From positions 1 to 23,104 of the forward strand of contig JAHLVW010000046.1 in the NCBI GenBank assembly GCA_019058275.1: a stretch of DNA of 23,104 bases. Reading direction: 5' to 3'. A program made the translations under genes and the position numbers. The notes beneath the pieces are model-generated. The model worked only from the letters and a program-made list of their open reading frames with translations, made no database searches and was not told where the DNA came from. Origin of the DNA: Candidatus Heimdallarchaeota archaeon (lineage in GTDB: Archaea; Asgardarchaeota; Heimdallarchaeia; JABLTI01). This document shows, piece after piece, positions 120 to 22,396 of the stretch. Every line of letters begins with the position of its first letter. The first letter of the stretch is position 1.

Positions 120-192
120 GATGCTCAAGACTCACACTACTTCTGTAAGGTCTAGAAGTCCGGTTCGGGAAGGAGACGCTTAGGTGATAAGC
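120..192 (+). repeat. Array boundary repeat, copy 1
   Basis: gatgctcaagactcacactacttctgtaaggtctagaagtccggttcgggaaggagacgcttaggtgataagc. Confidence 0.92.
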
Positions 193-286
193 ATTTGTAG
201 ATTATACAATTAATTCTTTATAAAACCATAAGAAATAAAAAGAGAGAAGTGATTTGTTAAGCGAATAAGGAAATGGAGAGTAAACA

Positions 287-448
287 TTGGCTGATAACGA
301 ATACAACCATTATAATGAATTGAAGCTTATAAAAGCGATAAAGTTACTTGCTGAAAAGTCAAAAGATCTAGATGAATTCAAACATCATTTAGAAAAATTA
401 TGGGAGAAATGGGAAAATTTCTACAAACAAGTTCAATCAGATTTTTAA
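287..448 (+). CDS. Small helical hypothetical protein (53 aa), below the ORF-track cutoff
   Basis: GGAGAG RBS, then TTG start: MADNEYNHYNELKLIKAIKLLAEKSKDLDEFKHHLEKLWEKWENFYKQVQSDF*. Its stop overlaps the convergent RHH gene's stop in a shared TTAA. Confidence 0.5.
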   Translation: MADNEYNHYNELKLIKAIKLLAEKSKDLDEFKHHLEKLWEKWENFYKQVQSDF

Positions 449-675
449 GGTTCTTCTTTCATTAATCTATTAATACGCTCTTCAGTTGTTTCTCCATATG
501 TAAATATTGTTATTTCTTTTTGCACTTGCACTATATAACTCGATATGGCTCTTCTAATAAATTCAGGTATGCTACTAAATGCGTATTTTTCTTTCACATC
601 ACTTCTCACTATAAAATTCTCAATTGCCTGAGCCATTTCTTCAGGTATATGTATCGTTCTCCATCCTTTTGGCAT
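445..675 (-). CDS. Ribbon-helix-helix (CopG/Arc/MetJ-like) DNA-binding protein
   Basis: N-terminal strand RTIHIPEEM followed by helices with SSIPEFIRRAI, a typical archaeal RHH pattern. Confidence 0.7.
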   Translation of the reverse strand: MPKGWRTIHIPEEMAQAIENFIVRSDVKEKYAFSSIPEFIRRAISSYIVQVQKEITIFTYGETTEERINRLMKEEP

Positions 676-818
676 CGTTTAACCCACTCGAACTAATTGT
701 ATATGAATTTGTGTTTTTAGAATAATGATATAATATCAATACCATAAAGGTTAAATAAAGTAATGTTATACGCTTATAGTAACCTTATAATAAACTCCGT
801 CCGGGATAAAAGGGGGAA

Positions 819-2021
819 ATGAAAAATAAGTTATTAATATCCTTAATTGTAGGTTCAGTTATAGGATTAGTTGGAACTGCTAGTATGACTGGTGTGTTCA
901 TTTTCAAACAAGGTCAATAAACAGCAATGTTGGAAACCTATCAACAATTAGATGATAGTTTTACCGATCTTGAAACAACATTGGCAGAGTTACAAAATAA
1001 TTACACTAGTTTAGAGAATAATTACACAATTTTGTGTGGTAATAATACAGAATTACAAGCACAATATGATGATTTATACGAAGATCATCAAGAGCTGATT
1101 GATGATTATAATGATCTTAGTGACGCTTATACTATTCTAAATGGTAACTATAATGATTTACAAGATGCTTATAATCTATTATACAATTTATATAATCAAT
1201 TGATGGATGATTATAATATTTTGCTAGATCAATATAATGATGTATTAGATGAGCTGAATGCATTTATGAATTACATAAAATCACTACCTAGACTTGATAA
1301 GATGACCTATTATTATCATCTTTGTAGGATAAACAATATTCAATATTACTATCAAGCACACAGCTTTGCAAAAAATTTAATTTTACATTCATCGCTTCAA
1401 GAAAATAATTTTGATGAGATTGATGATATACTAGATAAATATGATTTCTTTGAAGAAATTAATTCAATGTTCGACTCATATTGGACGATAGAAAAATGTC
1501 TACAACGTTGGATACAATATAATGTTTTAACACTCCCAGTTTATCCTGATGACATTCATGATTGGATTACAAATAACCTTGAATATCGATATGATTCAGT
1601 AACGAACTGTGATCGTGAAGGACTTGTCTGAGATTTCTTTATGTCACCTTTAGAAACGCTAAAGTACCGATGCGGTGATTGTGATGATTTTAGCATTCTT
1701 GGTGGATATATGTTTGAAATTAATGGTGTTAATGTCAAATTTGCTACAATAAGCGATAATACTTACTATCCAGATGGATTAAATCATGCATTCCTATGGA
1801 TAAAGATTGTAGATTATCTGAGCCAAGAACCATGGTGGGCAACTAACAATCATTGGTCCTTTAATGGTAGTGTAAGTTATGACTGGATTATTGTTGATTG
1901 TACACCTGGATGGCAAAGCTCAATCTGGGATCGACCTGCTTGGTATCAATGGTATAAAGATAATAGTATTACTACTGCTGATTGGTATCAATTTGTAGCT
2001 ACTGTTACAGTTGATCCATAA
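819..2021 (+). pseudogene. Membrane-anchored coiled-coil plus transglutaminase-like cysteine protease, with two in-frame stops
   Basis: ATG 819 after a GGGGG RBS gives anchor MKNKLLISLIVGSVIGLVG. In-frame TAA at 918-920 and TGA at 1629-1631. ORFs 927..1631 and 1641..2021 share the frame. Y/L heptad repeats, then SPLETLKYRCGDCDDFSIL, HAFL and IVDCT (Cys-His-Asp triad). Confidence 0.8.
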
Positions 2022-2048
2022 TTCTTCTTTTTCTTTTTAATCTTTTTT
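2022..2048 (+). terminator. Oligo-T archaeal-type terminator
   Basis: ttcttctttttctttttaatctttttt directly after the stop. Confidence 0.5.
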
Positions 2049-2080
2049 AAAATCAATCTTAAAAGGATAATGTGTTTTAA

Positions 2081-2158
2081 CAACTTCTTCTTTAAGGTCA
2101 AGAAGTCCGGTTCGGGAAGGAGATGCTTAGGTAGAAGGACCTACTTGCTGTGCATCTC
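2081..2158 (+). repeat. Array boundary repeat, copy 2
   Basis: caacttcttctttaaggtcaagaagtccggttcgggaaggagatgcttaggtagaaggacctacttgctgtgcatctc. Confidence 0.92.
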
Positions 2159-2361
2159 TTTGATGAGCATTTTTTTTATAAATAAAATTATGAAGGAAAA
2201 GTAAAACCCATTATACAATATATAATTGATAATTTTACAAGTTATAAAAGAGGGGTGAAATTCTATTTCGTTGATGAAAATGGAGAAGTCGAATCCATTC
2301 ATTGGCAGAATTTTATTAAACTTGTATGACAAATATACTATTTAACTGAGGGAGTTTAATT

Positions 2362-2895
2362 GTGTCAGAAAAAACTATGGCAAAAGCTGGTTTGATTATC
2401 CTTTGTATTGCAATTGCAGTTGGATCGGTTTTTGGAATTCTTGGTGGAAGCATAGGATTAGCATTTAGTGGAGATTATGGTTGGATAGCATTAATTGTAG
2501 GATCTGCTCTTTTATTCATTAGTGCTGTATATAGTATTTTCAGAATTTCACTTAGTAAAAGATTTCCAACTACTGAGAGAGAGAAAAAATCTCCTAAATA
2601 TACTCTCATCTGGATAGTTGTAGCGATTGCATCTCGTGCTGGAGCAGTTTTATCTTATTTCTTTGGTTTGAAAATGACTCATAATAAATGATTATTACTT
2701 GTAATCATAGCTCCTCTTGCTGCTTTGTGTTTGTTTTCAATAGTCGTTTTAATTTCTAGTGGGAAACGAAAAGCTGCAAAAGTAGCTGATACTATACCTC
2801 TTACAGATGTTGAAAGCAAAATTAACGAAGAGCTGAAAGATGAATTAGAAACAAAATCATCAAACAATCTCTCTGAATATGTTTTCGAATTTTAG
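2362..2895 (+). pseudogene. Four-TM membrane protein with an in-frame TGA at 2689-2691
   Basis: GAGGGAG RBS. After HNK* the frame continues with another hydrophobic helix (LLLVIIAPLAALCLFSIVVLISSGKRK) and a charged tail to TAG at 2893-2895. Confidence 0.7.
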
Positions 2896-2910
2896 AAGAA
2901 TAAGAAAAAA

Positions 2911-2956
2911 ATGTAGAATCTCTGCACACACTTCTTCTTTAAGGTCTAGAAGTCCA
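2911..2956 (+). repeat. Array boundary repeat, copy 3 (right extension absent)
   Basis: atgtagaatctctgcacacacttcttctttaaggtctagaagtcca. Confidence 0.92.
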
Positions 2957-3277
2957 TAATATTCGTGATAAGCTTTATAGATAAAAATAAGTTATTGAAA
3001 AAAAATAAATAAAACCTTTCTTCTTTCATCATATTTTTTCATAATTTCAACAACAAACAAACCAAAATCCCTTGATTTCATATAAAATATATAAAATATT
3101 GGCATAGGTTACATACATCTACTGTAGCTTAAATAAAAGCAAAGCTATATATTTTTCATATTCATATTTTTAATGAATAGTTAGGTAAAATTTTTGAATA
3201 TAGTTTGTTATGTTATAACATCAATTTTACTCAATAAAACTGAGCAATTCAATGATTTTTTTGGAGGAAAACATACT

Positions 3278-4924
3278 ATGAATAAAAAAATAAGTTATAC
3301 ATTCTTAATTTTCAGTTTAATTCTTACTATGCCAATAATCACTGCTAATGCCAATCTTGGTCCTCAAGAATTGGTAAATAATGAGATTACAGCTAATTGT
3401 GAAGATAATAAACAACAGATTATTGCATTGGATGGTTCCTATATTTTTAATGGAACAACCATTGATATTAATACTATTAATGAAACTTGGATTGAGGTTA
3501 ATCTCAATGGAACACTCCTAGTGCAAATATATCAGGGAGATGACCATTTAAAAGTCATTTTTCAACGAATTGTTATCCCAACAAATGAATTAATCATGTC
3601 ATTAGAGATGTATTCTTTTGAATATGATAATACTACTTTATCAATAGATCTTCCTTCAGGAATAGAAATTAGTGCTTCATATAACTATCTTGGAATTTGG
3701 ACTTTTAGAATTGCTGATTTCACTATTTCCTGGGCAAAAGAAGCTCATATACTAGATGTCTTTAATACTGATTTTCATGTGCACATTGAAGATTATGGTA
3801 CATATGAACGAATTTTTGTGAATTACTTTGGTTATTTGATTAATGTCTATAGATGGGCGGATCGAAGTTGGATTGTAAATTTTGGCGAGATATATAAAGT
3901 AAATGCTACTTACATTCCACCTGTTGAATCTGGTACACTAAATGTAACATATCAAAAAGAAGCTGGTCCAGTAATTCCTGTCTTTACCGATTTTCCAGAC
4001 TATAACATGGAAGACCCCGAAGTATGGCATGATATGGATGGCTTCCTAACAATCGCTTTTATTGAAACAGTTTTAATCATCGCTCATGACAACTTTGTTA
4101 TTTCCATTTATGAAGATAAAGTTGTTTTAGACTATGTCTTTGTTTCCATAATCATTTACATGACTACAATTATTGAACGTATAGTTATTATGTTCTATGA
4201 GTATACCATCATTTATTATTTTACTATAGTTGAGTTATTTCTAGTAATTATTTGGGAAACAATTGAACTCAAAGTATATCAATATCAAATTATCATTGTT
4301 TATGAGATATTTGAAATAATAATTCTGATTTTTGAAAATCACTATGAAGTTTTGGTTGTTTTTCATTTAGAATTATGGATTATTGAAATAGTTTTTGTGA
4401 TTCTTCTCTTTGGTCCAGTAATCATTCAACCGGTAATCATTCGAATATTACCTTTCATCATTCCCATATTAGTTCCAATGTATTTCTGGATTCCAGTTTT
4501 CATCAACCAATATACCTACATTTATTTGCCATATCTCGCAGAAGAAATATTCATCGATATTTACAATGAATTGCTTGAATCACCAACTCACACTATAGAT
4601 TTTTATGTTTATGATCATTTAGCTAATCCCATTGTTGATGCTAATGTTTTTGTTAATTACAATGGTTCAGATTATAGCACCACAAGTTTGGCTGGAGGTA
4701 TTTATAGAGTAGAATTACCTGCATCAGATCAAGCTGAAGTCATAACTGTTACAGCTACAAAAACCTTCTATCCTACTGCTACTCTCGTTTATACTTTAGA
4801 AGTAAATTGGAGTACTGCTATTGTAACAACAGTTGAAGCATCTTTGCCTTTATTTACTATAATTGTTTCATTAATCTCTATAGTAATTGGTACTATGGTT
4901 TATAATAGGAAAAAGATGATTTAA
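3278..4924 (+). CDS. Secreted/surface protein with signal peptide, Ile/Val/Tyr/Phe-rich core, Ig-like C-terminal domain and C-terminal TM anchor
   Basis: GGAGG RBS before ATG 3278 (preferred over 3194). Signal MNKKISYTFLIFSLIL. C-terminus ASLPLFTIIVSLISIVIGTMVYNRKK is a TM segment plus basic tail. Confidence 0.8.
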   Translation: MNKKISYTFLIFSLILTMPIITANANLGPQELVNNEITANCEDNKQQIIALDGSYIFNGTTIDINTINETWIEVNLNGTLLVQIYQGDDHLKVIFQRIVIPTNELIMSLEMYSFEYDNTTLSIDLPSGIEISASYNYLGIWTFRIADFTISWAKEAHILDVFNTDFHVHIEDYGTYERIFVNYFGYLINVYRWADRSWIVNFGEIYKVNATYIPPVESGTLNVTYQKEAGPVIPVFTDFPDYNMEDPEVWHDMDGFLTIAFIETVLIIAHDNFVISIYEDKVVLDYVFVSIIIYMTTIIERIVIMFYEYTIIYYFTIVELFLVIIWETIELKVYQYQIIIVYEIFEIIILIFENHYEVLVVFHLELWIIEIVFVILLFGPVIIQPVIIRILPFIIPILVPMYFWIPVFINQYTYIYLPYLAEEIFIDIYNELLESPTHTIDFYVYDHLANPIVDANVFVNYNGSDYSTTSLAGGIYRVELPASDQAEVITVTATKTFYPTATLVYTLEVNWSTAIVTTVEASLPLFTIIVSLISIVIGTMVYNRKKMI

Positions 4925-4949
4925 TTTCTCTTTTTCTTTATCTTTTTTT
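4925..4949 (+). terminator. Oligo-T terminator
   Basis: tttctctttttctttatcttttttt after the stop. Confidence 0.5.
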
Positions 4950-5089
4950 ACAAAAATGGATACTGAGATATTGAGATATTAGCTGCATTATAATACTCTT
5001 CATTTGATATAAAAAATTACTATTACTAAAATCAGAGTAAGAAGCTTGATTAATTCAAGATCAAATCACATAATTTTATAAAAAAAATA

Positions 5090-5121
5090 GATGCAACAGG
5101 ATTTACACTTCTTCTTTAAGG
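5090..5121 (+). repeat. Array boundary repeat, copy 4 (left half only)
   Basis: gatgcaacaggatttacacttcttctttaagg; similarity ends abruptly after AAGG. Confidence 0.75.
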
Positions 5122-5152
5122 AGATTATATAACAAGAACTCATATTTCCCTT

Positions 5153-5602
5153 TTAAGATTCAATGGAGTTATCTTCAATAATAGCTTTGTGCTTTTTTCG
5201 ATACAAAAACCAGAGGAGAGCACTAAAGGAAAGAATGAAATAGAAGCAAAAAGGAAGAAGAGAAAGCAAAAGAAAAGGGAAATCAAAGGATTCCCAACTC
5301 TCATTAAAAACAAACAAAGACAAAAGAATGTAAATGAGAAAAGCTAAGAATACAAGAAAACTGGTAAGGGTAAGAGAAAGAGAAATCAGATTTAGACGCA
5401 CACTTCTCAGCTGCTCATCTGAGAGATGACGATAAAGAAAATCTCGAGAACGGGAACGTAAAATGTAAGAAATGGTGAAAAAAATAGGTAGTCCAACTAA
5501 AAGACCTCCAAGAATCATCCCAAAACAACCCAAAGTATAGAAGCGATAAGGATAATCCGTAATATTCAGTGATTCAAGAAATGAAGGAAAAAACAAAATC
5601 AC
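5153..5602 (-). CDS. Membrane protein of unknown function (about 3 TM)
   Basis: Three long hydrophobic segments, a basic/acidic C-tail and a purine-rich RBS upstream. Confidence 0.7.
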   Translation of the reverse strand: MILFFPSFLESLNITDYPYRFYTLGCFGMILGGLLVGLPIFFTISYILRSRSRDFLYRHLSDEQLRSVRLNLISLSLTLTSFLVFLAFLIYILLSLFVFNESWESFDFPFLLLSLLPFCFYFILSFSALLWFLYRKKHKAIIEDNSIES

Positions 5603-5700
5603 TTCCTATACTTCCCCCAATTTACTCAAATAGAGATGGAACACATCACATCTTTCTTACATTAAATATATCTATCTTTCAATAAAAACTAATTGTTCAC

Positions 5701-5726
5701 ATCTCTTCTTCAAGCAAACCTAGGTG
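5701..5726 (+). repeat. Short variant-spacer site related to copy 7
   Basis: atctcttcttcaagcaaacctaggtg versus atctccacttcttcaagcaatacctagatg at 11945. Confidence 0.5.
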
Positions 5727-5750
5727 CAACTAGGCAAATAAAAAACAAAA

Positions 5751-5862
5751 ATGTAGAATCACTGCACACACAACCTCTTTAAGGTCTAGAAGTCCATTTC
5801 GGGAAGGACACGCAAAGGTGTTAAGTACCTACCGGCTGAGCATCTCGCTCGAAGATTTGACC
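5751..5862 (+). repeat. Array boundary repeat, copy 5 (longest)
   Basis: atgtagaatcactgcacacacaacctctttaaggtctagaagtccatttcgggaaggacacgcaaaggtgttaagtacctaccggctgagcatctcgctcgaagatttgacc. Confidence 0.92.
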
Positions 5863-5978
5863 TGGAAAAATTATCTCCAGTTGTTAGCATAAACATTTTC
5901 TGAATTCTAATCAGAGTATTATTATAGAAGGAAATTAAATAGAATGATAAAGATCTACTGACAGATAATGTGAAGAAG

Positions 5979-6224
5979 ATGGCAGAAGTAGTAGTAATAG
6001 GAAAGAAATTCCTTATGGAAATACCAAAGGAAATTCGAGAAAAAGCAAATTTGAAGGAAGGACAAAAAGTAAAATTAACAGTCAAAGGAAAAGAAATTAT
6101 CTTACAACTAATAATAGACCCTCTCGAACTAGCATTAACTGCTTCAAAATTCGCTGAAACAACCTTTGAAGAATTCGAACAAGAATCTGAGGAAATGCAA
6201 AATGAGCTCTTCAAAGAGCGATAA
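5979..6224 (+). CDS. AbrB/MazE/SpoVT-family antitoxin
   Basis: IPKEIREKANLKEGQKV swapped-hairpin motif and an acidic C-tail. Confidence 0.85.
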   Translation: MAEVVVIGKKFLMEIPKEIREKANLKEGQKVKLTVKGKEIILQLIIDPLELALTASKFAETTFEEFEQESEEMQNELFKER

Positions 6225-6252
6225 AATACCTTTAGATACTACTTACCCTTAA
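6202..6252 (+). pseudogene. 5' remnant of a PIN-domain (VapC-like) toxin
   Basis: Overlaps the antitoxin 3' end. MSSSKSDKIPLDTTYP* resembles the first PIN strand (hhhDT). Confidence 0.5.
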
Positions 6253-6282
6253 AGTATGATAATAATTACTTCTACCTTTGTT

Positions 6283-6564
6283 TTATCTGTAGGCTTTCTT
6301 TCGGTGAGAGATTCTTATGATAACCACAATTACTTCCTTGATGTAAATTTTATACAGAATACGATAATTCCCCGTTTTAGCTCGATAGGTGTTTTTCTTA
6401 TTGCGCATTCTTATGGCTGGAACTTGGAAAGGAAATTTCAAGGAATGAATAATATCCATAATTTGCTTCTGAATATTTTTTGGAAGCTTCTTTAGTTCTT
6501 TATCAACCACAGGAAGGAGATAAACCTTATACTCTCTTCTCTTGGGATTCTTACTCGACATCAC
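6283..6564 (-). CDS. relE: RelE/ParE-family toxin
   Basis: KELKKLPKNIQKQI, YRAKTGNYRILY and IRISHRKKAY; start overlaps the antitoxin stop. Confidence 0.88.
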   Translation of the reverse strand: MMSSKNPKRREYKVYLLPVVDKELKKLPKNIQKQIMDIIHSLKFPFQVPAIRMRNKKNTYRAKTGNYRILYKIYIKEVIVVIIRISHRKKAYR

Positions 6565-6752
6565 TTCACCAGAACAAGTTTATCAAAAGCCTTTTCCTTG
6601 ATGATTTTATCTGCTTGAATAATTCGTTCTAGTTCTTCTTCTATAAGGTAATCCTCTTCCACAATTAACAAAAGGAGTTGTTCAATTCGGTTTATTTTTT
6701 CCTCTAGTTGATTAATTCTCTCAAGAACAATATTCTCATTCTCTGTTGTCAT
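6561..6752 (-). CDS. Cognate antitoxin of the RelE toxin
   Basis: Small acidic protein directly upstream of relE with a 4-nt overlap. Confidence 0.75.
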   Translation of the reverse strand: MTTENENIVLERINQLEEKINRIEQLLLLIVEEDYLIEEELERIIQADKIIKEKAFDKLVLVK

Positions 6753-6936
6753 TGAAGATGCTCCTATGATGTTTCATGTACATAAATGTTAATATACATT
6801 ATTATTAAGAACATTTTAGTTTTATTTAAGATTATTAAAAAAAGTAATATTATACTGGATAGAAGATTTTTTTCCTACTAGAGATATAACCCTTTACTTC
6901 AACTATGAAAGAAACCAACTTGAAGAAATACTGAAG

Positions 6937-6991
6937 CACTTACTTCCTCTTTAAGGTTAAGAAGTCCAGTTCGGTAATGACAATTAAGTAC
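6937..6991 (+). repeat. Array boundary repeat, copy 6
   Basis: cacttacttcctctttaaggttaagaagtccagttcggtaatgacaattaagtac. Confidence 0.85.
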
Positions 6992-7039
6992 AATATTCAA
7001 GAAAAAAACAATCAATGAATAATTGGAATTGGTTTAGTT

Positions 7040-14278: not shown

Positions 14279-14294
14279 TTTTGAAGTCTGATAC

Positions 14295-15066: not shown

Positions 15067-15108
15067 AATACTCAGGTCACACACTTCCTCTTTAGGGGCT
15101 AGAAGTTC
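15067..15108 (+). repeat. Array boundary repeat, copy 10 (right extension absent)
   Basis: aatactcaggtcacacacttcctctttaggggctagaagttc. Confidence 0.85.
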
Positions 15109-15144
15109 TTTAGGACAAGAATACAAGACTTAAAATCAAACCAG

Positions 15145-15477
15145 TTGCAACTAGATCTTTGGATAAAAACACCATCATCAGAAGCTCATTTCACTGCTAA
15201 ACTTACATTTAATGATATCAATGGTAAAAATAGAATCATACAAGATGGAATCCTTAAAGTAAATGAACCTATTAATAATTTTGAAAAGATAACAATAGAT
15301 TTGATTGCAACAGTCATTGAAATAAAGAAAGATGAGTCTTTGGCTCTTGAAGTCAGTTGGTCTAATTTTCCTAAATACTCATTACCACTGAAAAATGATT
15401 CCTTAAGACAATCAATTGCTTTAGGTCGATCGACACCTTCATGCATAATTTTACCATTTTATACCAAAGAACCATAA
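15145..15477 (+). pseudogene. Isolated C-terminal domain of a CocE/NonD (PepX_C-like) hydrolase
   Basis: LALEVSWSNFPKY, QSI and PSCIILP. No catalytic domain. The frame is open back to the TAG inside repeat copy 10. Confidence 0.65.
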
Positions 15478-15552
15478 TTCAATTTATTTAATTCGCTTTC
15501 AAATGGTTTAGCAAACTATTATATGATATTAAAAAAAGAAAGAGGATTTTGG

Positions 15553-16623
15553 TTATTTTCCTCGTACATCTAAATCTCTTAGTTCTACTCTTCGTACAGT
15601 CATTTTCTGTAGTTTGATTTGTTCCTCAATCTCTTCTATAGTAAAATCTACTCTTTCTCTTCTTGCATCGGAGCCAGCAATGTATCTATATATTTCATTA
15701 AAGCTAGCTTTTAGATTGTATTGCTTCTCAAAATAATTTATGATTGTTTGAATGTCTTTCTGTAATACCTGTAAGTTACTGTTTATTCTATTTTCACTGC
15801 GATTACCAACTAAGCTCATATCAATTGCTTGTGGAAAGTCTATAATAATTGGTTTATTCTCATGTACTAGTATATTATATTCCGAGAAATCACCATGAAT
15901 CAGTCTAGCTTTCTGATACATTATTTTAAGCTGTTCTACAATCTCATCGAACATTAGTTCAGGTTCTTCTAGGGGCACTTTTCTCAATTGTGGTGCAGGA
16001 ACCCAATCTGTTCCAATGAATTGCATAAGAATGATATTATTTATCTTCATAGCTGGAGTTGGAACATTAAGTCCTGCTCGATATGCTTTGCTCATGAAGA
16101 AATATTCCGTTTCCGCATAGGACGTTGCTCTTGTAAGTGGATTGCCAACACGACGTCTTTTAGCTTTGTTATGTGATGTTAGTTGCAATCTGAACATTTT
16201 CACAATGAGAGGTGCTCCATTTAGATGAGCAGAATAGATTGATGCTTCTTTACCGGAGTTAATCTCAGCTACCAAGTCAGTAACTGCTCTATAGCTTATC
16301 AATTCACTTCTAAGTTTTTGATAGTCTATTTCTTGCTCTTGCATCTGCATAAAGGATGGATCGAAATCTTTTGATGTGTAATATTTATTACTTGCTCTTG
16401 ATATCATTAGTTTTTCTGGTCGTTCCACTGCTCGAGTTGTTCGGGTTACTCCTTTTATTTTCTTGGTAGATTTTATTCGATCAGCTTTTTCAATATCCTC
16501 TACTCGGAGAATATCAAATGCCTCATCTTCAACAATATCGGATTCTTGTTCTTTTCCGACATCTAGCTCATTATTTTCTTTTAAATCACTAACTTTTTTT
16601 GTTTTTTCTTTTATTTTAGCCAA
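15553..16623 (-). CDS. rio1: RIO1-family atypical Ser/Thr protein kinase
   Basis: INSGKEASIY, VPTP, ILMQFIG, IHGDFSEYNIL and IIDFPQA. Start probably TTG 16623 after GGAGTG (track gives 16641). Confidence 0.9.
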   Translation of the reverse strand: MAKIKEKTKKVSDLKENNELDVGKEQESDIVEDEAFDILRVEDIEKADRIKSTKKIKGVTRTTRAVERPEKLMISRASNKYYTSKDFDPSFMQMQEQEIDYQKLRSELISYRAVTDLVAEINSGKEASIYSAHLNGAPLIVKMFRLQLTSHNKAKRRRVGNPLTRATSYAETEYFFMSKAYRAGLNVPTPAMKINNIILMQFIGTDWVPAPQLRKVPLEEPELMFDEIVEQLKIMYQKARLIHGDFSEYNILVHENKPIIIDFPQAIDMSLVGNRSENRINSNLQVLQKDIQTIINYFEKQYNLKASFNEIYRYIAGSDARRERVDFTIEEIEEQIKLQKMTVRRVELRDLDVRGK

Positions 16624-17172
16624 TTTTCTATCACACTCCAAACTGGAATAATATTGGTGATTAATTCAACAGTTAGGAGACGTTTTTACTTGGTTAGAAA
16701 AAGAACCAATAATGGTAGCATATCTAGCAGCATCACTAGGTTCTTAAAAAAAAAACCAAATAGACAGAACGTTCAACCTAACTTCTTTAGATTAGCCCAA
16801 ACCAAAAACCGGCAAATCCCTCAAAGTAAGAAGTTAGTTTATGTAGCTGTCTTGCTACTAGAATCTCACAACAATCAAGAGGTTTTGCTGCTTTCTTGTT
16901 TGACCTAATAAAAAATCCATGTCAATCATTATTTCAGTTCTCCTCCAGATAGTTTGTAGCAAGCTTTTCTCTGATTATTAAGCTTACAATCTTATATGTA
17001 ATATTCTATTTTTTAAACCCTTTCACTAAACTTGTTGTAAAATAACTTAAACTAAAAATTTTCATATAAAAAATAATTGGGTCATCTCCATAAATAAACA
17101 GAGGTAGATAATGATCCTTTTCCATAAACTCAAAATTAATTCTTCATTTAAATTAATTTCTAAGAAATACTT

Positions 17173-17220
17173 GATGTTCAGAACTCACACTTCTTCTTTA
17201 AGGACTAGAAGTCCAATTCG
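17173..17220 (+). repeat. Array boundary repeat, copy 11
   Basis: gatgttcagaactcacacttcttctttaaggactagaagtccaattcg. Confidence 0.92.
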
Positions 17221-17332
17221 AAAAGTAATTATTACAACATTAGAAAAAAAGGAAAAAGAAGAAATTAATGACTTTTCTTCTTTATATTTGGCAGAAAAAA
17301 ATAAGTATTTATCAACAAAGTGTTGACTTTAT

Positions 17333-17557
17333 TTATAATGGAATATTTGGATAATCATTTCCACTGGAACAGTGATTAATTCTGAATACAAGTTTCTTGA
17401 TTAGACACCATACTCCGGGAATCCAAATGAAGATAATTAATAGCATAATAGCAAATATTAAGCCAGGTATAATATACCAGCAGTGACAAGGTTTTCCTTC
17501 AAAGACTGGAACATAGCACTTATGAGTAACAATTGCCAATGGATCATCTGGTACCAT
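17333..17557 (-). CDS. Small single-pass membrane protein with Cys/His-containing N-terminus (74 aa)
   Basis: AGGAG RBS before ATG 17557; HKC and PCHCWY, then a TM segment. It is the only ORF between repeats 11 and 12. Confidence 0.5.
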   Translation of the reverse strand: MVPDDPLAIVTHKCYVPVFEGKPCHCWYIIPGLIFAIMLLIIFIWIPGVWCLIKKLVFRINHCSSGNDYPNIPL

Positions 17558-17775
17558 ATTTCCTTTACTCCTGTTTTTTGATAAATATATTATGAAAGTG
17601 AAAAACAACTATAAGACTTAATAGAACATCCAATCTATGGATTACTTATTTCTGCTTAAAAACAGAAAATAAGTTTTTCACCCTCCTAAGGGATATCTTC
17701 TATATTTATTTTTATAGTTTATCCTTTAACTTACGACAAAAAATGATATTATTATTTATATTGTTTGAAAAACAA

Positions 17776-17869
17776 ACACCTTATCTTTAAGGTCTAGAAG
17801 TCCATTTCAGTAATGACACGCTGAGGTGGTAAGTGCAGGCAGACTGATCTTCTCGTCTGATGACTTGAC
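17776..17869 (+). repeat. Array boundary repeat, copy 12
   Basis: acaccttatctttaaggtctagaagtccatttcagtaatgacacgctgaggtggtaagtg...tctcgtctgatgacttgac; aligns without gaps to the right extension of copy 5. Confidence 0.9.
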
Positions 17870-17958
17870 AAATACACCACAAATACAACACTGTTAATAA
17901 AAAAAAAGTAAAAGAGTTAACATAAGAAAAAAAGAATAAATTATCTAGTGATGAGTTT

Positions 17959-18183
17959 ATGACAACTCCTTTGATAAATGAAAGAATAGAGGTAACTCAA
18001 AAGATACTGGTTGGTAAGCTATCATAAAAGGAACAAGAATTGCAGTTGAATTTATTATTGGAATTGTTAGCAAATGATTGGACTTATGAAGCAATCTTGG
18101 AAAATTATCCCCAATTAAAGAAAGAAGATATCCTCGCAGCAATTGATTAAGCAAGAATTATCATTAAAGAAGAACAATTATGA
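17959..18183 (+). pseudogene. DUF433-family antitoxin pseudogene
   Basis: Across two frameshifts: MTTPLINERIEVTQKILVGK / IIKGTRIAVEFI / LELLANDWTYEAILENYPQLKKEDILAAID*ARII. Confidence 0.8.
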
Positions 18184-18236
18184 CCAGTGAAGGGGTTAAA
18201 GAGGAATTTACGATTGTTATAAACAAACAACCATTA

Positions 18237-18746
18237 TTATTTTTTAGATTCTAATTCCTTAAGAATTGTTTCATAAAGCAATGCAGTCATTCGAAAATTA
18301 GTTTTATTAATTGCTGATAAAATGACGAGAACTTCATTTCTAGAGAGTTTTCCTGTGTGCTTTAGAGAAACTAATAATCCAAGTAAACCAGTAAGATTAA
18401 ATCCTTCAGCTCTCGCAACAGATCGAGCGACTAAATCATCAAACACAATAACATCTTTCTTTTTCTTTGCTGCTAGCAAAATGGAAATTTCCCCATCATG
18501 TAAACCGAGAGTATGGTAGAGCTGATGAGATGAATGAGAAGTTATTGTAATGGATTGCACTTGTATTTTCCCATTAGAAATAAGTTCTTCAACAGCTTTC
18601 TTAATTGGAGATGGTTTCAAAGTGACTTCTTTGAGAACAGCAGAGGTAATTGTGAAATTAGGTATCAAATCACAAAATAATTGCAAATAGCCAATCTCAA
18701 CTAATACGATAAGGCTTGACGAATCGAAGAGAAATCGGTTTGTCAT
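18237..18746 (-). CDS. PIN-domain toxin, DUF3368-like
   Basis: FDSSSLI, LHDGEISIL, FDDLVARSVA and TGLLGLL. Confidence 0.85.
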   Translation of the reverse strand: MTNRFLFDSSSLIVLVEIGYLQLFCDLIPNFTITSAVLKEVTLKPSPIKKAVEELISNGKIQVQSITITSHSSHQLYHTLGLHDGEISILLAAKKKKDVIVFDDLVARSVARAEGFNLTGLLGLLVSLKHTGKLSRNEVLVILSAINKTNFRMTALLYETILKELESKK

Positions 18747-19066
18747 CCTTCTAACTTCCCTTCAAGGGTCTGAATATCTCTTTGAAGCTCACTTGAATCA
18801 TAGCTAAAATAGGTAAAACCACGTTCTTTTGCGAGGGTTACAAACTCAACAACAGACAATCCTGCTTCTGCTGCTGCACGAGTAAGAGAAATTTCATTTT
18901 TGATCAAGCGTTCAAAGTGAAAATCGAATAGTAAGCCTTTTTTTCCTCGTTTGATTATTTTTCTGATTAGCTCAGATTTACTTATACCAAGTTTTTTTGC
19001 AAGTGCATCGAGTTCTTTGGATTCTTCATCATCTACACGTACTTGAACAATAGTCATAACATCCAC
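18743..19066 (-). CDS. RHH plus UPF0175-like antitoxin
   Basis: VQVRV and SKSELIRKII (RHH), then ISLTRAAAEAGLSVVEF. ATGA overlap with the PIN gene. Confidence 0.8.
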   Translation of the reverse strand: MDVMTIVQVRVDDEESKELDALAKKLGISKSELIRKIIKRGKKGLLFDFHFERLIKNEISLTRAAAEAGLSVVEFVTLAKERGFTYFSYDSSELQRDIQTLEGKLEG

Positions 19067-19068
19067 AA

Positions 19069-19088
19069 TACAAATAATGACATTTGTA
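19069..19088. promoter_or_regulatory. Probable autoregulatory operator
   Basis: Perfect inverted repeat TACAAAT-aatgac-ATTTGTA just upstream of the RHH antitoxin start. Confidence 0.5.
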
Positions 19089-19179
19089 GTACAAAAACAT
19101 TCCTAACAGTTAGAAATGAAACATTATATAAAGAAAAAAGATTTTTCTATGCATCTTCAAGAACAGTGTAACTAATTTT

Positions 19180-19467
19180 TCATTGTAAATACTTGAGTTT
19201 GGTTATTCTTCCTTCTTTGCAATCGCTTCTTGCTTCTTCAATTGATTTCAGATAATCTCCACCGGGGATAGATACTTTAAATGTTGTGATGAATGGAGGG
19301 CTATCAATTGGTAGTGGTTCAATTTCAAGATATAGCTCAGTTGCTTCTTGGAGGTTTGCTAATGCTTCTTCAATGGTTTTCCCTTGACTAGCGGTTTCTG
19401 TTTGAGGACATTTTGATATGAAGTAATCTCCCTCTTTGTATATAACTGCTGTGAGAATGTATTCCAT
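19180..19467 (-). CDS. hicB: HicB-like antitoxin domain fused to the tail of a different antitoxin
   Basis: ASQGKTIEEALANLQEATELYL. The last 25 aa match the C-terminus of the 20727..20921 protein. Confidence 0.75.
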   Translation of the reverse strand: MEYILTAVIYKEGDYFISKCPQTETASQGKTIEEALANLQEATELYLEIEPLPIDSPPFITTFKVSIPGGDYLKSIEEARSDCKEGRITKLKYLQ

Positions 19468-19527
19468 TTACATCAATAAACAATAAAACACTCATACTCA
19501 TTAGTTTTTCTTATTTTTATAAGACCT

Positions 19528-19920
19528 TCATTGTGGCAAAAGTTTCTTCTCTTTGAGATAATCTTTCATTGTCTTGATATATTTTTCAGCTAACTTTAAT
19601 TGTTCTGTAGCATCAGCTTCTGTTATTTCTAATCCTACACCATAATCCCCCTCTAATCGTCTATCATAAGCTTCATTTAGTATTTTTCCAAATTCCTTAG
19701 CTAATTCACCTGTTCTAATGAAATACTTCCCGAAAAAGCTGATTGTTCCTTTATGAGTGGAAGTAGTTATGTTCTTAGTTAAGAGGAGAGCTTCAGTAAT
19801 TGCATACATAGCATAATAGCATCTAGAAAGGCAGCTAGCATAATCTCCATCTTCAAGTACTAGCTTTGCTGTTTTAAGAAATCTTTCCGCTTTAGTGATG
19901 AAATCAGCCAGTTCAGACAA
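19528..19920 (-). CDS. HEPN-domain protein (MNT-HEPN pair)
   Basis: SRCYYAMY, THKG and RRLEGDY. Confidence 0.88.
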   Translation of the reverse strand: MSELADFITKAERFLKTAKLVLEDGDYASCLSRCYYAMYAITEALLLTKNITTSTHKGTISFFGKYFIRTGELAKEFGKILNEAYDRRLEGDYGVGLEITEADATEQLKLAEKYIKTMKDYLKEKKLLPQ

Positions 19921-20236
19921 TTGAGATTCCTTCCTCTTTCACCGTTAAAATGAATGGGGATTGATAATTGTTATAGAATGATTCCGGAACAACTATTACC
20001 GAAATTAGCTCATCTTTTTCCATTAAAATCTCCCATAAAATATCACTCAGGCTTTTTCTTACTGTAATTCGATCCAGCTCATCAGAGATCACAACTAGCA
20101 AATCAATATCTGAATCCTTTGTAGGTTCCCTTCGAGCTTGTGAGCCATATAAAAGGATTTCTTTAACCTTTTGTCCATAAATTTCAAGTAAGTAATTTTT
20201 AACTGGTTCTAAAATTCTTGCTAGTTTTTCATCCAT
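19913..20236 (-). CDS. Minimal nucleotidyltransferase (MNT)
   Basis: LYGSQAR and DSDIDLLV (GSx10DxD). Confidence 0.9.
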   Translation of the reverse strand: MDEKLARILEPVKNYLLEIYGQKVKEILLYGSQARREPTKDSDIDLLVVISDELDRITVRKSLSDILWEILMEKDELISVIVVPESFYNNYQSPFILTVKEEGISIV

Positions 20237-20352
20237 AAGTGATCACTCAATTTACTACCTAATCCAGTAGTTGTTTATATATAACCACTGAATAATAATA
20301 ATTATTTCCAGTTTATAAAAACATTCACTAACCAAATGATTGAGAAATAAAA

Positions 20353-20427
20353 GATGTTCAGGTTACACACTTCTTCTTTAAGGACTAGAAGTCCAGTTCG
20401 GGAAGGACACGCTTCAACGATAAGTAC
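20353..20427 (+). repeat. Array boundary repeat, copy 13
   Basis: gatgttcaggttacacacttcttctttaaggactagaagtccagttcgggaaggacacgcttcaacgataagtac. Confidence 0.93.
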
Positions 20428-20478
20428 ATTTAGGTTGAATGCTTAATCGAGGATTCTACTAACGATAAATATTGCAAA

Positions 20479-20730
20479 CTATTGATAAATCGTTTTTCGA
20501 TGACCTACTCTCAAAATTACAATAATTCTATCATCTAAATCAAAAATGACTCTATAATCACCAATTTTGAATCTAAAGGAGCCAAGTTTCGGATTTGTTA
20601 ATTTTTTTGCATGTGCTAGCGGATCTAATTTGCATTCTCTCAATTTCTGAATAATTCTATCCTTTACTTTTTGTTCAAGTTTCTCTAGATCCTTGACAGC
20701 TCTTTTAGTAAAGACAATTTCATATGTCAA
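20479..20730 (-). CDS. relE: RelE/ParE-family toxin
   Basis: FTKRAVKDLEKL, RFKIGDYRVIF and LRVGHRKTIY. Confidence 0.9.
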   Translation of the reverse strand: MTYEIVFTKRAVKDLEKLEQKVKDRIIQKLRECKLDPLAHAKKLTNPKLGSFRFKIGDYRVIFDLDDRIIVILRVGHRKTIYQ

Positions 20731-20921
20731 GGTAAATCCTCGAGTTTTGTTATTTTTCCTTCTTTGTAATCTTTTCTTGCTTCCACTATTGATTTTATAT
20801 AGTCTTCACTTGACAGTCCGAGTATGTCTTCCAATAAATCTTCTACTACGTCATTTACTGTTTCTTTTATGAGTTTTTGTAATTCTTCAGCAGTCATATC
20901 CTTTACTTTTACTGTCATCAC
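20727..20921 (-). CDS. Cognate antitoxin of the RelE toxin
   Basis: VKDMTAEELQKLI and EARKDYKEGK; directly upstream of and overlapping relE. Confidence 0.8.
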   Translation of the reverse strand: MMTVKVKDMTAEELQKLIKETVNDVVEDLLEDILGLSSEDYIKSIVEARKDYKEGKITKLEDLP

Positions 20922-21060
20922 TATTCACTAACTTATAATTCTGCTTTCACCTTAAAAAAACTCTTGGATATTATAATAATTCTCTTAGCATCTCTTATTT
21001 CAAGTGAAATTATGAAATATAAATCAAATTGAGTATATTAATAACAACAAAATCAATCAA

Positions 21061-21137
21061 TAATGATGCTCTGGACACACACTTCTTCTTTAAGGGGTAG
21101 AAGTCCAGTTCGAAGGACACGCTTAAGTAGCAAGTAC
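21061..21137 (+). repeat. Array boundary repeat, copy 14
   Basis: taatgatgctctggacacacacttcttctttaaggggtagaagtccagttcgaaggacacgcttaagtagcaagtac. Confidence 0.92.
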
Positions 21138-21372
21138 AATCTTCTTTGAATCTACTCCCTTTAAGCTAGATATATTATTGTTCAAACTGTTTTGTATAAA
21201 AAAATCTGGCACACCAAAACATAATGAAAAAGAAGAGATTAAAATTGTTGGTTGTATTACTTATTTTCTGATTTTCTGACTTAATTTATCAGTAACAAGA
21301 TGATAAATCTCTTTAGAGAAAAAGGACCTAAAAAGGAAAATTGTTTTGAGAGCTTGTTAGAGTTGGTTGCCA

Positions 21373-22170
21373 TTAACTAATCTTCTCTCCAACAACTTTA
21401 GGAGAAAGAGAACCGAGGTTGTAGCTCTCTGCTTCAGTTAAGTGTTGAATTTCTTCTGGCTTAAATCCCATGATTCTAGCCATCGTAGCATCTGTTGCTA
21501 CAGTTGTTTTTCCTATTATGAACCGATCTAAGCGTCTCGATTTTGGTCCATTCCAACCTTCAAGAGCCACTCTAGCATCAACTATACAAAAATCAGGTTG
21601 AATAAATCTGTTCAAATCAACAATAACATCATTAATATGAGGATGATAGAATGATTGATCCTTTCTGGGGAGTAAACCAAAAAGATTCTTCAGAGTCCCA
21701 GTCAAAGTGGTCAAATAGTGAGTCTTTGCAACAGCTAAAGAAATGAAAAAATGTGGATCAACTAGAATATCAGGAAAATTTGGATTCTTGAAATAATTTC
21801 CTTCGAAATCAGTTTCAATTGTTGGGGACTGGCTAAGATTGATTAATGATACATCAAAACCAGCCAGCTGCATCGTTTCTTCTAAATTTCTATAACCGAA
21901 TTTTTCAAAAGCTTCATCAGCGAATTTACTCATACTATCTGACTCTACAATTTTAATTGATAAATCCCGGTCTTCTTTGAAAATTAAGTTTAATAAAGCT
22001 TCAACCACCCGAACATCATTTACAGCAAAGCCAGTTTTGTCATTTAGAGTACAGATATTTGGTTTGATTATAACAGGCGATTTCAAATCTTGAAAACCAT
22101 TGATAAGTTCAATGCCCATTTTTAGAGACTGTTCAATATTGTTCTCATCTTTCACCAAAGCTACAACCAA
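21373..22170 (-). CDS. DUF362-family protein
   Basis: VIIKPN, AKTH, TGTLKNLFG, IVDA and VATDA. Start probably TTG 22170 after a GGTGA RBS (track gives 22206). Confidence 0.85.
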   Translation of the reverse strand: MVVALVKDENNIEQSLKMGIELINGFQDLKSPVIIKPNICTLNDKTGFAVNDVRVVEALLNLIFKEDRDLSIKIVESDSMSKFADEAFEKFGYRNLEETMQLAGFDVSLINLSQSPTIETDFEGNYFKNPNFPDILVDPHFFISLAVAKTHYLTTLTGTLKNLFGLLPRKDQSFYHPHINDVIVDLNRFIQPDFCIVDARVALEGWNGPKSRRLDRFIIGKTTVATDATMARIMGFKPEEIQHLTEAESYNLGSLSPKVVGEKIS

Positions 22171-22300
22171 ATCAATCACCTTAAGAAATTCGTTATTTAA
22201 TAGCACTTCCGGATAATTCTTATGGATATCTAATTAGATTTTAAATTTTTCCCGAAGCTCTTCTACATCCATATAAACTTCAGTAAAATAAATAAAAAAC

Positions 22301-22396
22301 TGTAGAATACTCGGGCCTCGCTTCTTCTTTCAGGTCTAGAAGTCCAGTTCGGGAAGGACACGCTTAGGTGGTAAGTACCCTATGGCTAAGTATCTC
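22301..22396 (+). repeat. Array boundary repeat, copy 15
   Basis: tgtagaatactcgggcctcgcttcttctttcaggtctagaagtccagttcgggaaggacacgcttaggtggtaagtaccctatggctaagtatctc. Confidence 0.93.

Follow-up and report, generated by a model that had tools for sequence, protein, structure and literature searches.

The repeat that divides a stretch of DNA from the Asgard archaeon Candidatus Heimdallarchaeota archaeon into about 15 small gene modules is a spare copy of the last bases of the 23S ribosomal RNA gene plus the stretch behind it, so the end of an rRNA gene serves here as the joint of an integron-like, fast-changing gene-cassette array that has no integron parts and no recombinase in sight. The whole stretch that we analyzed (23,104 nucleotides; assembly GCA_019058275.1, contig JAHLVW010000046.1, positions 1 to 23,104) is referred to below as the window. 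We found no published description of such a structure.

To examine the preliminary description of the window, which had reported 15 copies of one degenerate repeat, all intergenic and on the + strand, we first relocated the copies and analyzed the genes between them (Table 1). The observation held: all 15 copies are present on the + strand (with the starts of copies 5 and 11 taken as 5749 and 17170, respectively). A search with the 19-nt core allowing up to 3 mismatches gave 12 matches against 0.01 expected by chance, none of which lies on the - strand. The copy at 5097 is only a 26-nt partial. All copies are intergenic with respect to credible genes, with only spurious ORFs overlapping them, and no annotated gene or operon crosses a copy. 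The intervals are 589-5010 bp in length, although two of them (15.1-17.2 kb and 17.8-20.4 kb) are composite rather than the single modules that had been proposed. Copies scattered across the genome in both orientations had been set out beforehand as an outcome that would speak against an array; in contrast, a profile search found 63 hits on only 7 of 118 contigs, co-oriented within each array.

Table 1. Coordinates of the orphan 23S tails and the intervening cassettes in the window. Tail positions are relative to the mature 23S end (23S, zero or negative; trailer, positive); the rRNA sense is the - strand.
Feature	Position	Strand	Description
Orphan tail 1	114..200	+	23S positions -23..0 plus trailer to +57, distal type B
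Orphan tail 2	2069..2148	+	-44..+32
Orphan tail 3	2909..2955	+	Trailer only (+5..+35, 100% identical to the native trailer) plus type A distal end
Partial tail 4	5097..5122	+	Distal half only, ends inside the core (..TTTAAGGA)
Orphan tail 5	5746..5861	+	-59..+35 plus type A distal end
Orphan tail 6	6926..6984	+	-8..+32
Orphan tail 7	11942..12016	+	-22..+37, the most diverged copy (69%)
Orphan tail 8	13505..13584	+	-43..+30
Orphan tail 9	14281..14356	+	-8..+28; 23S-side half co-inherited with the DUF6144 cargo in three congeners
Orphan tail 10	15064..15110	+	0..+46
Orphan tail 11	17163..17225	+	+1..+62
Orphan tail 12	17762..17881	+	-71..+34, the longest 23S fragment in the window
Orphan tail 13	20348..20433	+	-26..+35
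Orphan tail 14	21060..21142	+	-26..+48
Orphan tail 15	22304..22396	+	-44..+46
Cassette 1	201..2068	.	RHH protein (445-675 -), coiled-coil protein (927-1631 +), unknown protein (1641-2021 +)
Cassettes 2-3	2149..5096	+	Small membrane protein (2362-2691) and a 576-aa membrane or secreted protein (3194-4924), no Pfam match
Cassette 4	5123..5745	-	149-aa membrane protein (5153-5602); paralogue with 87% identity at contig C98:122448-123040, homology stops in the tail core
Cassette 5	5862..6925	.	AbrB/MazE-type antitoxin (5970-6224 +), ParE/RelE toxin (6283-6564 -) with a 63-aa partner (6561-6752 -)
Cassette 6 (5 kb)	6985..11941	.	PycTM-domain protein (7040-7612 -), MBL-fold protein (7732-8835 -), TPR protein (9145-9768 +), TPR-CHAT protein (10031-11815 +); candidate defence module
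Cassette 7	12017..13504	+	Secreted CarboxypepD_reg-like protein (12295-13275)
Cassette 8	13585..14280	+	Two-gene toxin-antitoxin-like pair: 77-aa ORF 13671-13904 (no Pfam family at E<=0.01) and TumE (13907-14278); tail-bounded homologues in congeners G005, G008 and G010
Cassette 9	14357..15063	-	DUF6144 protein (14399-14830); identity 78-87% in congeners G002, G005, G007 and G009 against about 70-74% for the core genome
Cassette 10 (composite)	15111..17162	.	PepX_C fragment (15145-15477 +), RIO-type kinase (15553-16641 -), degraded trailer remnant near 17075-17090; RIO unit 92% identical in G005 and 89% in G007
Cassette 11	17226..17761	-	91-aa membrane protein (17333-17608)
Cassette 12 (composite, no internal tails)	17882..20347	-	Small ORF 17957-18154, PIN/DUF3368 (18237-18746) with RHH-UPF0175 (18743-19066), 95-aa ORF (19180-19467), HEPN (19528-19920) with MNT (19913-20236)
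Cassette 13	20434..21059	-	ParE/RelE toxin (20479-20730) with upstream partner (20727-20921)
Cassette 14	21143..22303	-	DUF362 protein (21373-22206)
Cassette 15 (cut by the contig end)	22397..23104	+	VapB (22491-22721) and PIN/VapC (22708-23025); 3' end runs into A-rich low-complexity sequence

The identity of the repeat, which the preliminary description had treated as an unknown element, was revealed by comparison with the rRNA genes. The genome has a single LSU gene, at C98:98488-102769, and the Rfam model LSU_rRNA_archaea ends at model position 2987/2987 inside the native copy of the repeat. Each repeat in the window is the reverse complement of a nested 3' fragment of this 23S gene, and each also carries 35-57 nt of the 3' trailer. 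At least 56 such orphan tails lie in clusters on six contigs, and all 56 copies map onto the native tail, with starts ranging from -114 to +17 relative to the mature end and +17..+35 shared among them. One array starts directly behind the 23S gene, although the physical link of the window to this 23S-anchored array was not established because the assembly is fragmented. All ten sampled congeners (Heimdall-group Asgard MAGs, designated by G numbers) have tails. Independent support for the assembly is provided by single Logan contigs that span window positions 5622-17813, and 34 metagenome contigs show the same architecture.

The trailer portion of the repeat is the 3' arm of the predicted leader-trailer processing stem of the 23S precursor. 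Leader plus trailer cofold at -52.6 kcal/mol, against -33.8 +/- 2.8 for shuffled trailers. The stem is conserved in G006, G008 and G009, with one two-sided compensatory change (leader A>T with trailer T>A in G008) and one G-U change (G009). Archaeal leader-trailer helices are cut by the splicing endonuclease, but here the arm exists in dozens of orphan copies with no partner leader and serves as a DNA joint. The exchange zone described below (+22..+31) lies at the internal-loop region of the predicted stem, and the fixed 3' end with variable 5' truncation of the rRNA part resembles retro-copies, raising the possibility of an RNA-level origin in which cassettes are joined on transcripts by the splicing endonuclease and ligase and fixed in DNA by reverse transcription or RNA-templated repair. 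We consider this very unlikely. No canonical 3-4-3 bulge-helix-bulge could be drawn at the joint, the mechanism has no precedent, no reverse transcriptase was sought or seen, and the cassettes contain divergent genes with their own intergenic regions and multi-gene operons in both orientations.

To determine whether the modules are exchanged independently, we compared the window with the congeners. The TumE-pair, DUF6144 and RIO cassettes are bounded by tails in other species, but with different neighbours and order; in G005, for example, the order of the RIO and TumE-pair cassettes is swapped. Some cassettes are far more similar between species (85-92%) than the core genome (about 73%): RIO is 89-92% identical and DUF6144 85-87%, against 72-74% for the core genome in the same genomes. 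Conversely, G004 has 96% core identity yet shares under 3% of window 1-20000. These results support the earlier proposal of an integron-like array of self-contained, independently reshuffled modules in an archaeon.

The position of exchange within the tail was then examined. Homology of paralogous and orthologous cassettes stops or starts at the core, and the distal type and proximal variant of a tail are unlinked (Fisher p=0.70). Among 990 column pairs in 106 tails, all 31 significant pairs lie within one half of the tail and none spans CTTCTTCTT, an invariant segment of about 10 nt, placing exchange in this segment. Breakpoints falling outside the repeat had been named in advance as evidence against a site-specific system, and some do (C35:18193, C99:~434 and window position 15533). 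Tails are also truncated at many different points within and beside the core, indicating that imprecise processes also shape the arrays. An invariant core would also focus homologous recombination, so the linkage break does not by itself prove a site-specific enzyme.

It is possible that there is no dedicated recombinase and that the tails are simply short direct repeats, between which host homologous recombination (RadA) or double-strand-break repair inserts, deletes, duplicates and exchanges cassettes, with crossovers piling up in the core only because it is the longest stretch of perfect identity. This is the main rival reading, which we regard as possible but less likely. In its favor, no recombinase was found in or beside arrays in 452 kb, and in addition to the ragged truncations and off-tail breakpoints, many cassettes keep 20-114 nt of extra 23S homology that a core-specific enzyme would not need. 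On the other hand, the core is 80-99% conserved in orphans, including its 23S-side arm, which has no rRNA role there and is as strongly conserved as the distal arm, while the flanks are 30-70% conserved and the adjacent 23S fragment decays. This looks like selection on a defined site of about 30 bp rather than on homology length. Furthermore, cassettes bounded only by 27-nt core-length tails have still been duplicated to a second locus, and no significant linkage crosses the core, although blocks of 16-30 nt stay linked on either side.

Consistent with the earlier suggestion that any recombinase lies outside the window, the search for one at the arrays, including the tyrosine and serine types that had been put forward for checking, gave nothing. 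No PF00589, TIGR02249, PF00239, PF01797 or PF07282 hit lies on array contigs, and no phmmer hit at E<=10 was found in 1,244 ORFs from 452 kb of array DNA. No tyrosine recombinase lies within an array in the 10 congeners; one PF00589 hit, G010:C19:71490-71813, is on a tail-bearing contig but about 60 kb from its weak tail hit. The only candidate seen is an XerA-like tyrosine recombinase at C55:205719-206777, which is named solely because it is the one tyrosine recombinase conserved across the genus. It scores below the XerA cut-off and has not been tied to the site, and there is no dif-like second copy of the core, which occurs nowhere in the genome outside the tails. The presence of circular cassettes had likewise been proposed as a test, but no circle or excision joint was observed; only contigs were available, and their joints inside tails are ambiguous. 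The interpretation offered in the preliminary description, an undescribed site-specific system that captures, stacks and excises cassettes, is thus supported in part, since neither a dedicated recombinase nor excision has been shown.

The finding that the repeat is rRNA sequence changes the comparison set to tRNA-type 3'-end integration and accretion as well as integrons. Tandem accretion of integrative elements at 3' ends of tRNA, tmRNA or housekeeping genes, with decay to integrase-less CIMEs, is documented in bacteria (PMC5704250), and similarly the direct repeats here are spare copies of the 3' end of a stable-RNA gene with variable homology length, the signature of tRNA or tmRNA-type attachment sites. 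The units stack behind the intact gene, and some are decayed, as indicated by the trailer remnant near 17075. Viruses, plasmids or islands with their own integrase may thus have repeatedly integrated into the 3' end of the 23S gene, each carrying a replacement gene end, and then decayed to small CIME-like remnants, but this seems unlikely. Not one integrase gene or fragment was found among about 150 units in the 452 kb, and no match to the core was found in 2.9 million viral contigs. The units, of which there are dozens, are 0.6-5 kb rather than 5-100 kb, and units of 0.6-0.8 kb are conserved as discrete tail-bounded units across species and reshuffled individually, which is not expected from random decay of large elements. 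We found no published precedent for a 23S rRNA gene as the target.

Integrons are reported to be enriched in Asgard MAGs (Ghaly et al. 2022, PMC9668308), and the array shares with sedentary chromosomal integrons and CALINs, including archaeal integrons, a long co-oriented series of small, unrelated, TA- and defence-rich cassettes, each carrying one recombination site that is split at the joint, with rapid turnover between close relatives, exchange between species and an entry site at one fixed end. However, a canonical attC/IntI integron or CALIN is all but excluded. No R''/R' box pair lies at any tail (4 pairs in the window against about 6 expected by chance), and as single strands the tails do not fold better than shuffled sequence (z from -1.1 to +0.6); there is no folded bottom strand. 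There is no IntI (the best TIGR02249 score is 38 bits against a cut-off of 265, and it is off-array) and no attI-intI-Pc platform, and genes lie in both orientations. The repeat is demonstrably rRNA sequence, and the preliminary description was correct that it is not attC, pdif or MITE/REP. The array resembles IMEX elements that exploit host Xer recombinases at dif (CTX/TLC arrays, GGI) and pdif modules of Acinetobacter plasmids in comprising mobile units without their own recombinase, presumed to use a host-encoded tyrosine recombinase, in tandem arrays at one chromosomal site. The tails are not a dif mimic as far as can be told, because the core is unique to tails, and they are all co-oriented, unlike the alternating sites of pdif modules. 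Involvement of Xer was not tested.

Overall, in the reading that we favor with moderate confidence, the window is part of a large array (at least 56 joints over about 110 kb) of small, independently exchangeable gene cassettes. Read in rRNA sense, each joint consists of a variable-length 3' fragment of the 23S gene, an almost invariant core of about 30 bp (GGACTTCTAGACCTTAAAGAAGAAGTGTG, containing the dyad ACTTCT-N12-AGAAGT) and 20 or more nt of distal trailer. Our data demonstrate that a cassette unit consists of the 23S-side half of one tail, the cargo, and the distal half of the next tail, that the two halves of a tail are inherited with different neighbours, and that exchange is concentrated in CTTCTTCTT (trailer about +22 to +31). 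Going beyond these data, we infer that circular cassettes carrying one complete tail are inserted and removed by conservative site-specific recombination at this core, by an enzyme that would be encoded outside the arrays, in the way that IMEX elements borrow Xer. In this view the tail of the real 23S gene, at which one array begins, acts as the attI-like entry site. We further infer that the distal half stays conserved because, when a cassette sits first in the array, its distal half must complete the leader-trailer processing stem of the 23S precursor, while the 23S fragment on the other side is never used by the ribosome and erodes, which would explain the ragged 5' ends. In contrast to integrons, the anchor is an essential rRNA gene, and part of the site doubles as its processing-stem arm.

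To examine the repeat family in its genomic setting, we first searched contig C35, the contig that forms the window, within the 4.12-Mb, 118-contig archaeal MAG to which it belongs (G000, about 30% G+C). The repeat family reported in the preliminary description is real. A 19-nt core with up to 3 mismatches occurs 12 times, all on the + strand, against 0.01 expected, and looser matching and inspection recovered all 15 reported copies. The copies are intergenic and divide the contig into intervals of 589-5010 bp. The cargo is also as previously described, with two ParE/RelE pairs and an AbrB/MazE-type protein, a two-gene pair whose second gene is TumE, PIN-RHH, HEPN-MNT and VapBC pairs, a 5-kb block with PycTM, MBL-fold, TPR and TPR-CHAT proteins, a RIO-type kinase, DUF362 and DUF6144 proteins, and several small membrane or secreted proteins without a family. 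The 5-kb cassette, in which the PycTM-domain protein is a membrane protein and the TPR-CHAT protein is caspase-like, is a possible composite defence module of unknown type. The contig ends in long A-runs and the PIN/VapC ORF runs into this low-complexity stretch, which may be an assembly end artefact or a truncated gene. An Rfam scan of the window gave only two sub-threshold chance hits (CRISPR-DR49 with E=0.9, and mir-724), the repeats being too short to trigger the LSU model on their own, and a tRNA scan of the window found none.

To determine what the repeat is, we put all genomic copies in register. They share a fixed left end but stop at different points on the right, and a few run on much further. 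Read on the opposite strand, these are nested 3' fragments of one gene. An Rfam search of the copy at an array end showed that the archaeal LSU rRNA model ends (position 2987 of 2987) inside that copy, and the genome has a single LSU gene, on contig C98. Mapping of 56 copies onto this native sequence showed that each starts somewhere between -114 and +17 relative to the mature 23S 3' end, and that all share trailer positions +17 to +35. Beyond +35 there are two alternative distal ends, type A and type B, reaching about +57. The 23S gene itself carries a large insertion (853 nt in the Rfam alignment) with a LAGLIDADG homing-endonuclease ORF, an rRNA intron of the usual archaeal kind located about 1.5 kb upstream of the array's entry site. 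Upstream of the 23S gene, the aldehyde:ferredoxin oxidoreductase gene is split into two ORFs (AFOR_N plus part of AFOR_C, then the rest of AFOR_C), which could reflect a frameshift, a pseudogene or a sequencing error.

We next investigated the distribution of these 23S tails, since scatter throughout the genome had been put forward in advance as an outcome that would count against a cassette array. No such scatter was found. A profile of the window's copies gave 63 hits on only seven of the 118 contigs, co-oriented within each array: 14 on C35, 12 on C98 running from the 23S gene to the contig end plus 2 at a second locus, 11 on C80, 10 on C38, 9 on C75, 4 on C99 and one weak hit on C2. This clustering on one strand per array, together with the absence of any Rfam repeat family hit, does not fit dispersed repeats of the MITE or REP type, and the alternating site orientation of pdif modules is likewise not seen. 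The far end of the C80 array and the region upstream of the 23S gene hold ordinary chromosomal genes. All ten sampled congeners (G002 to G010 among them), named in public records as Heimdallarchaeota or Promethearchaeati MAGs, carry tails, and nine of them carry three to 27 or more. Thirty-four metagenome contigs with an exact core show the same co-oriented arrays, two of them directly behind an LSU gene. Logan contigs of three sediment runs span up to 12 kb of the window across seven tails and confirm its order, indicating that the order is not an assembly artefact of this MAG.

G006 was considered as a possible empty site, but its contig simply ends in the native tail. In G009 the 6 kb behind the 23S gene holds eight or more ORFs mostly on one strand (including one of 619 aa), with no further tails and no homology to G000; it may be one large first cassette or a different kind of insert, and we did not resolve this. 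In G008 a solitary unit of a glmS-like gene plus at least 170 nt of 23S 3' end and trailer sits between two genes that are neighbours in G000. This is a tail-bearing unit far from any rRNA gene. In G000, paralogous short-chain-dehydrogenase cassettes (81% identity) on C98 and C38 are each flanked by two tails cut down to the core (starting at +9). The C98 copy lies 47 kb upstream of the 23S gene, in the opposite orientation to the main array and among ordinary genes.

Locations of the array anchor, individual units, breakpoints and neighbouring features (G000, this genome; G008 and G009, congeners; L003, L017 and L019, loci on the contigs named beside them)
Feature	Location	Strand
Single LSU (23S) rRNA gene; array abuts C98:102769	G000 C98:98488-102769	
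LAGLIDADG ORF in the insertion inside the 23S gene	L003:8718-9275 (G000 C98 ~100717-101274)	
Split aldehyde:ferredoxin oxidoreductase gene	L003:349-1980 (G000 C98 ~92.3-94.0 kb)	
Paralogous short-chain-dehydrogenase cassettes	G000 C98:55152-56172 and C38:12434-13922	
Segment of C99 resembling the end of C98	G000 C99:1-6054 versus C98:128000-130185	
Possible composite defence cassette	window:6985-11941	
Breakpoint not at a tail	window:15533	
RIO-type kinase	window:15553-16641	-
Degraded trailer remnant	window: near 17075	
Breakpoint not at a tail	window:18193	
Breakpoint not at a tail	G000 C99:~434	
PIN/VapC ORF	window:22708-23025	
Contig end with long A-runs	window:22943-23104	
Solitary glmS-like unit with 23S 3' end and trailer	L017:4677-7010 (G008 C112 ~12.7-15.0 kb)	
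Genes flanking that unit, as neighbours in G000	G000 C97:11498-11971 and 12872-13408	
Region behind the 23S gene of G009	L019:1-6132 (G009 C20)	

The 5' leader of the 23S gene is complementary to the trailer in a helix continuous with 23S helix 1, as expected of an archaeal pre-rRNA processing stem. The cofold energy is -52.6 kcal/mol, against -33.8 +/- 2.8 for shuffled trailers. The helix is conserved in G006, G008 and G009, with one compensatory change on both sides (G008) and one change preserved as G-U (G009), and both distal types can extend the stem with different leader segments. We also looked for the canonical bulge-helix-bulge (3-nt bulge, 4 bp, 3-nt bulge) at the joint. The spacing is close to 3+4 on both strands, but the central 4 bp pair poorly and we could not draw a canonical motif; with the cleavage sites not known, these observations decide neither for nor against one. 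An RNA-level origin of the cassette joints appears very unlikely.

Several lines of evidence indicate that the cassettes are units of exchange. Within the genome, several cassettes have diverged paralogues (67-92%) in other arrays with other neighbours. Across species, the TumE-pair, DUF6144 and RIO cassettes are again bounded by tails but sit next to different cassettes, and in G005 the order of the RIO and TumE-pair cassettes is swapped. As a yardstick we used a 9.2-kb core region, in which G004 is 96% identical to this genome, G002, G003, G005 and G007 are 72-74%, and the rest are 67-72%. Against that yardstick the RIO cassette is 92% (G005) and 89% (G007) identical and the DUF6144 cassette is 85-87%, indicating recent transfer between species. 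The RIO-type kinase is an extra copy travelling as cassette cargo. It is 92% identical at the nucleotide level to G005, whose core genes are about 74% identical, and chromosomal RIO paralogues are only 65-72% identical. The near-conspecific G004 shares under 3% of window 1-20000, although G004 is a fragmented, 84%-complete assembly and this is not proof of absence. Within G000, C99 resembles the end of C98 (89-92% identity in two blocks) but has about 3 kb of different cassettes between them, with the right breakpoint exactly at a tail core and the left one not. This may be a second strain in the bin (contamination 6.8%) or a paralogous array segment.

To examine where exchange happens, we compared the ends of homology between related cassettes, the position of such breakpoints relative to the repeat having been proposed beforehand as a test of the array. 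Homology stops or starts at the core. The cargo plus the distal trailer half travel together, and the 23S-fragment half travels with the cargo on the other side. The distal type (A or B) and the main 23S-side variant are unlinked (Fisher p=0.70). In 106 tails from this genome and its congeners, 31 of 990 column pairs are linked at p<0.001, and every one of these pairs lies within the distal block or within the 23S-side block; none spans the invariant CTTCTTCTT segment, about +22 to +31. The core (CACACTTCTTCTTTAAGGTCTAGAAGTCC in window orientation) is 80-99% conserved, while the flanks fall to 30-70%. It contains the dyad ACTTCT-N12-AGAAGT and occurs nowhere else in the genome. However, not all change is tidy. 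Tails are truncated at varied points, the window keeps a degraded trailer remnant, and at least three breakpoints are not at tails. The main rival to a site-specific enzyme, plain homologous recombination focused on the longest identical stretch, is possible but in our view less likely.

We then asked whether the arrays carry the parts of an integron or of islands integrated at the 3' end of a gene. No integron integrase lies next to the array; the best TIGR02249 score in the genome is 38 bits against a cut-off of 265, on C9, which is not an array contig. No attC box pair (R'' RYYYAAC with R' GTTRRRY) lies at any tail, with 4 pairs in the window against about 6 expected, and single-strand folds of the tails are no better than shuffles (z from -1.1 to +0.6). 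The attC search rested on these box and fold tests, without the IntegronFinder and HattCI models. In place of mostly promoterless, co-oriented ORFs read from Pc, credible genes are split about evenly between the two strands and several cassettes hold divergent pairs. A canonical integron is thus the least likely of the alternatives considered. Direct repeats that duplicate the 3' end of the target gene and stack behind the intact gene, a hallmark of tRNA- or tmRNA-type islands and CIMEs, are present. An element-encoded integrase is not: no tyrosine, serine, Y1-HUH or TnpB gene lies on an array contig of G000, no tyrosine recombinase lies within an array in ten congeners (the hit on contig C19 of G010 is about 60 kb from that contig's weak tail hit), and no recombinase homologue appears, even at E<=10, among 1,244 ORFs from 452 kb of array DNA. 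A search for a recombinase at the array end had been suggested at the outset, but the array flanks are ordinary chromosomal genes, and a truncated integrase at the start of contig C5 has no tail beside it. A scan of viral contigs for the core was also empty. These results speak against decayed integrase-bearing islands, and we regard island accretion as unlikely.

The unit structure, the polarity, the anchor at the 23S gene, the localised exchange zone and the movement between species are shown by these data, whereas the mechanism is our inference. We favour, with about even confidence, conservative site-specific recombination of single-tail circles at the core of about 30 bp by an enzyme encoded elsewhere. 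The preliminary interpretation, of a site-specific system that captures, stacks and excises cassettes using a recombinase outside the window, is partly supported. A search for circles carrying one repeat had been suggested as a check of such a system, but the public runs were examined only as Logan contigs from sediment metagenomes, in which the joints between tails have only 21-49 nt on the shorter side and cannot be told from the genome's other tails, giving no evidence either way for circles or excision; one further run (X6, small share) was not interpretable. The only named candidate enzyme is the genus-conserved XerA-like recombinase, which scores 117 bits against a cut-off of 220, has about 90 extra residues, and is the sole PF00589 hit in G002, G003 and G005. 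As in IMEX elements that exploit Xer and dif, the units have no recombinase of their own, but the core has no second genomic copy and the host dif site is unknown, so that resemblance of the tails to a dif site is left undecided. In this view the asymmetry of the tails would follow from function. An inserted cassette would donate its distal half to the working 23S precursor, so that half must still pair with the leader, while its 23S fragment would always end up as an orphan and erode. We consider it improbable, though possible, that the 23S tail is the recombination site of a gene-capture system mechanistically unrelated to integrons, in which either a new kind of recombinase recognises the roughly 30-bp processing-stem core, or cassette joining is coupled to pre-rRNA processing itself (endonuclease and ligase cut-and-join at the stem centre, fixed in DNA). 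Under this reading Asgard archaea evolved their own integron analogue built on an essential rRNA gene.

The array works like a sedentary integron and looks like tRNA-type 3'-end accretion, but it fails defining tests of both. We found no published account of a 23S-anchored cassette array in the two Asgard mobilome papers, the archaeal integron paper or wider full-text searches. We regard the array as a variation on these known arrangements, which would become categorically new if the enzyme or mechanism proves unrelated to known recombinases. The missing enzyme is a well-defined search problem with a core substrate of about 30 bp. The double duty of the site, as both DNA joint and arm of the pre-23S processing stem, gives a concrete and testable explanation for why such an array can sit on an essential gene without harming it. 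The finding would add the end of a ribosomal RNA gene to the short list of natural gene-capture sites (integron attI, tRNA and tmRNA ends, dif), and would do so in the archaeal lineage closest to eukaryotes. The arrays may also be a systematic cause of assembly breaks and mis-binning around Asgard rRNA genes. Overall, the arrays hold more than 100 kb (about 3% of the genome) of toxin-antitoxin, defence, membrane and accessory genes, which turn over faster than species diverge and move between species, so the arrays are probably a main route of accessory-gene flow in these organisms.
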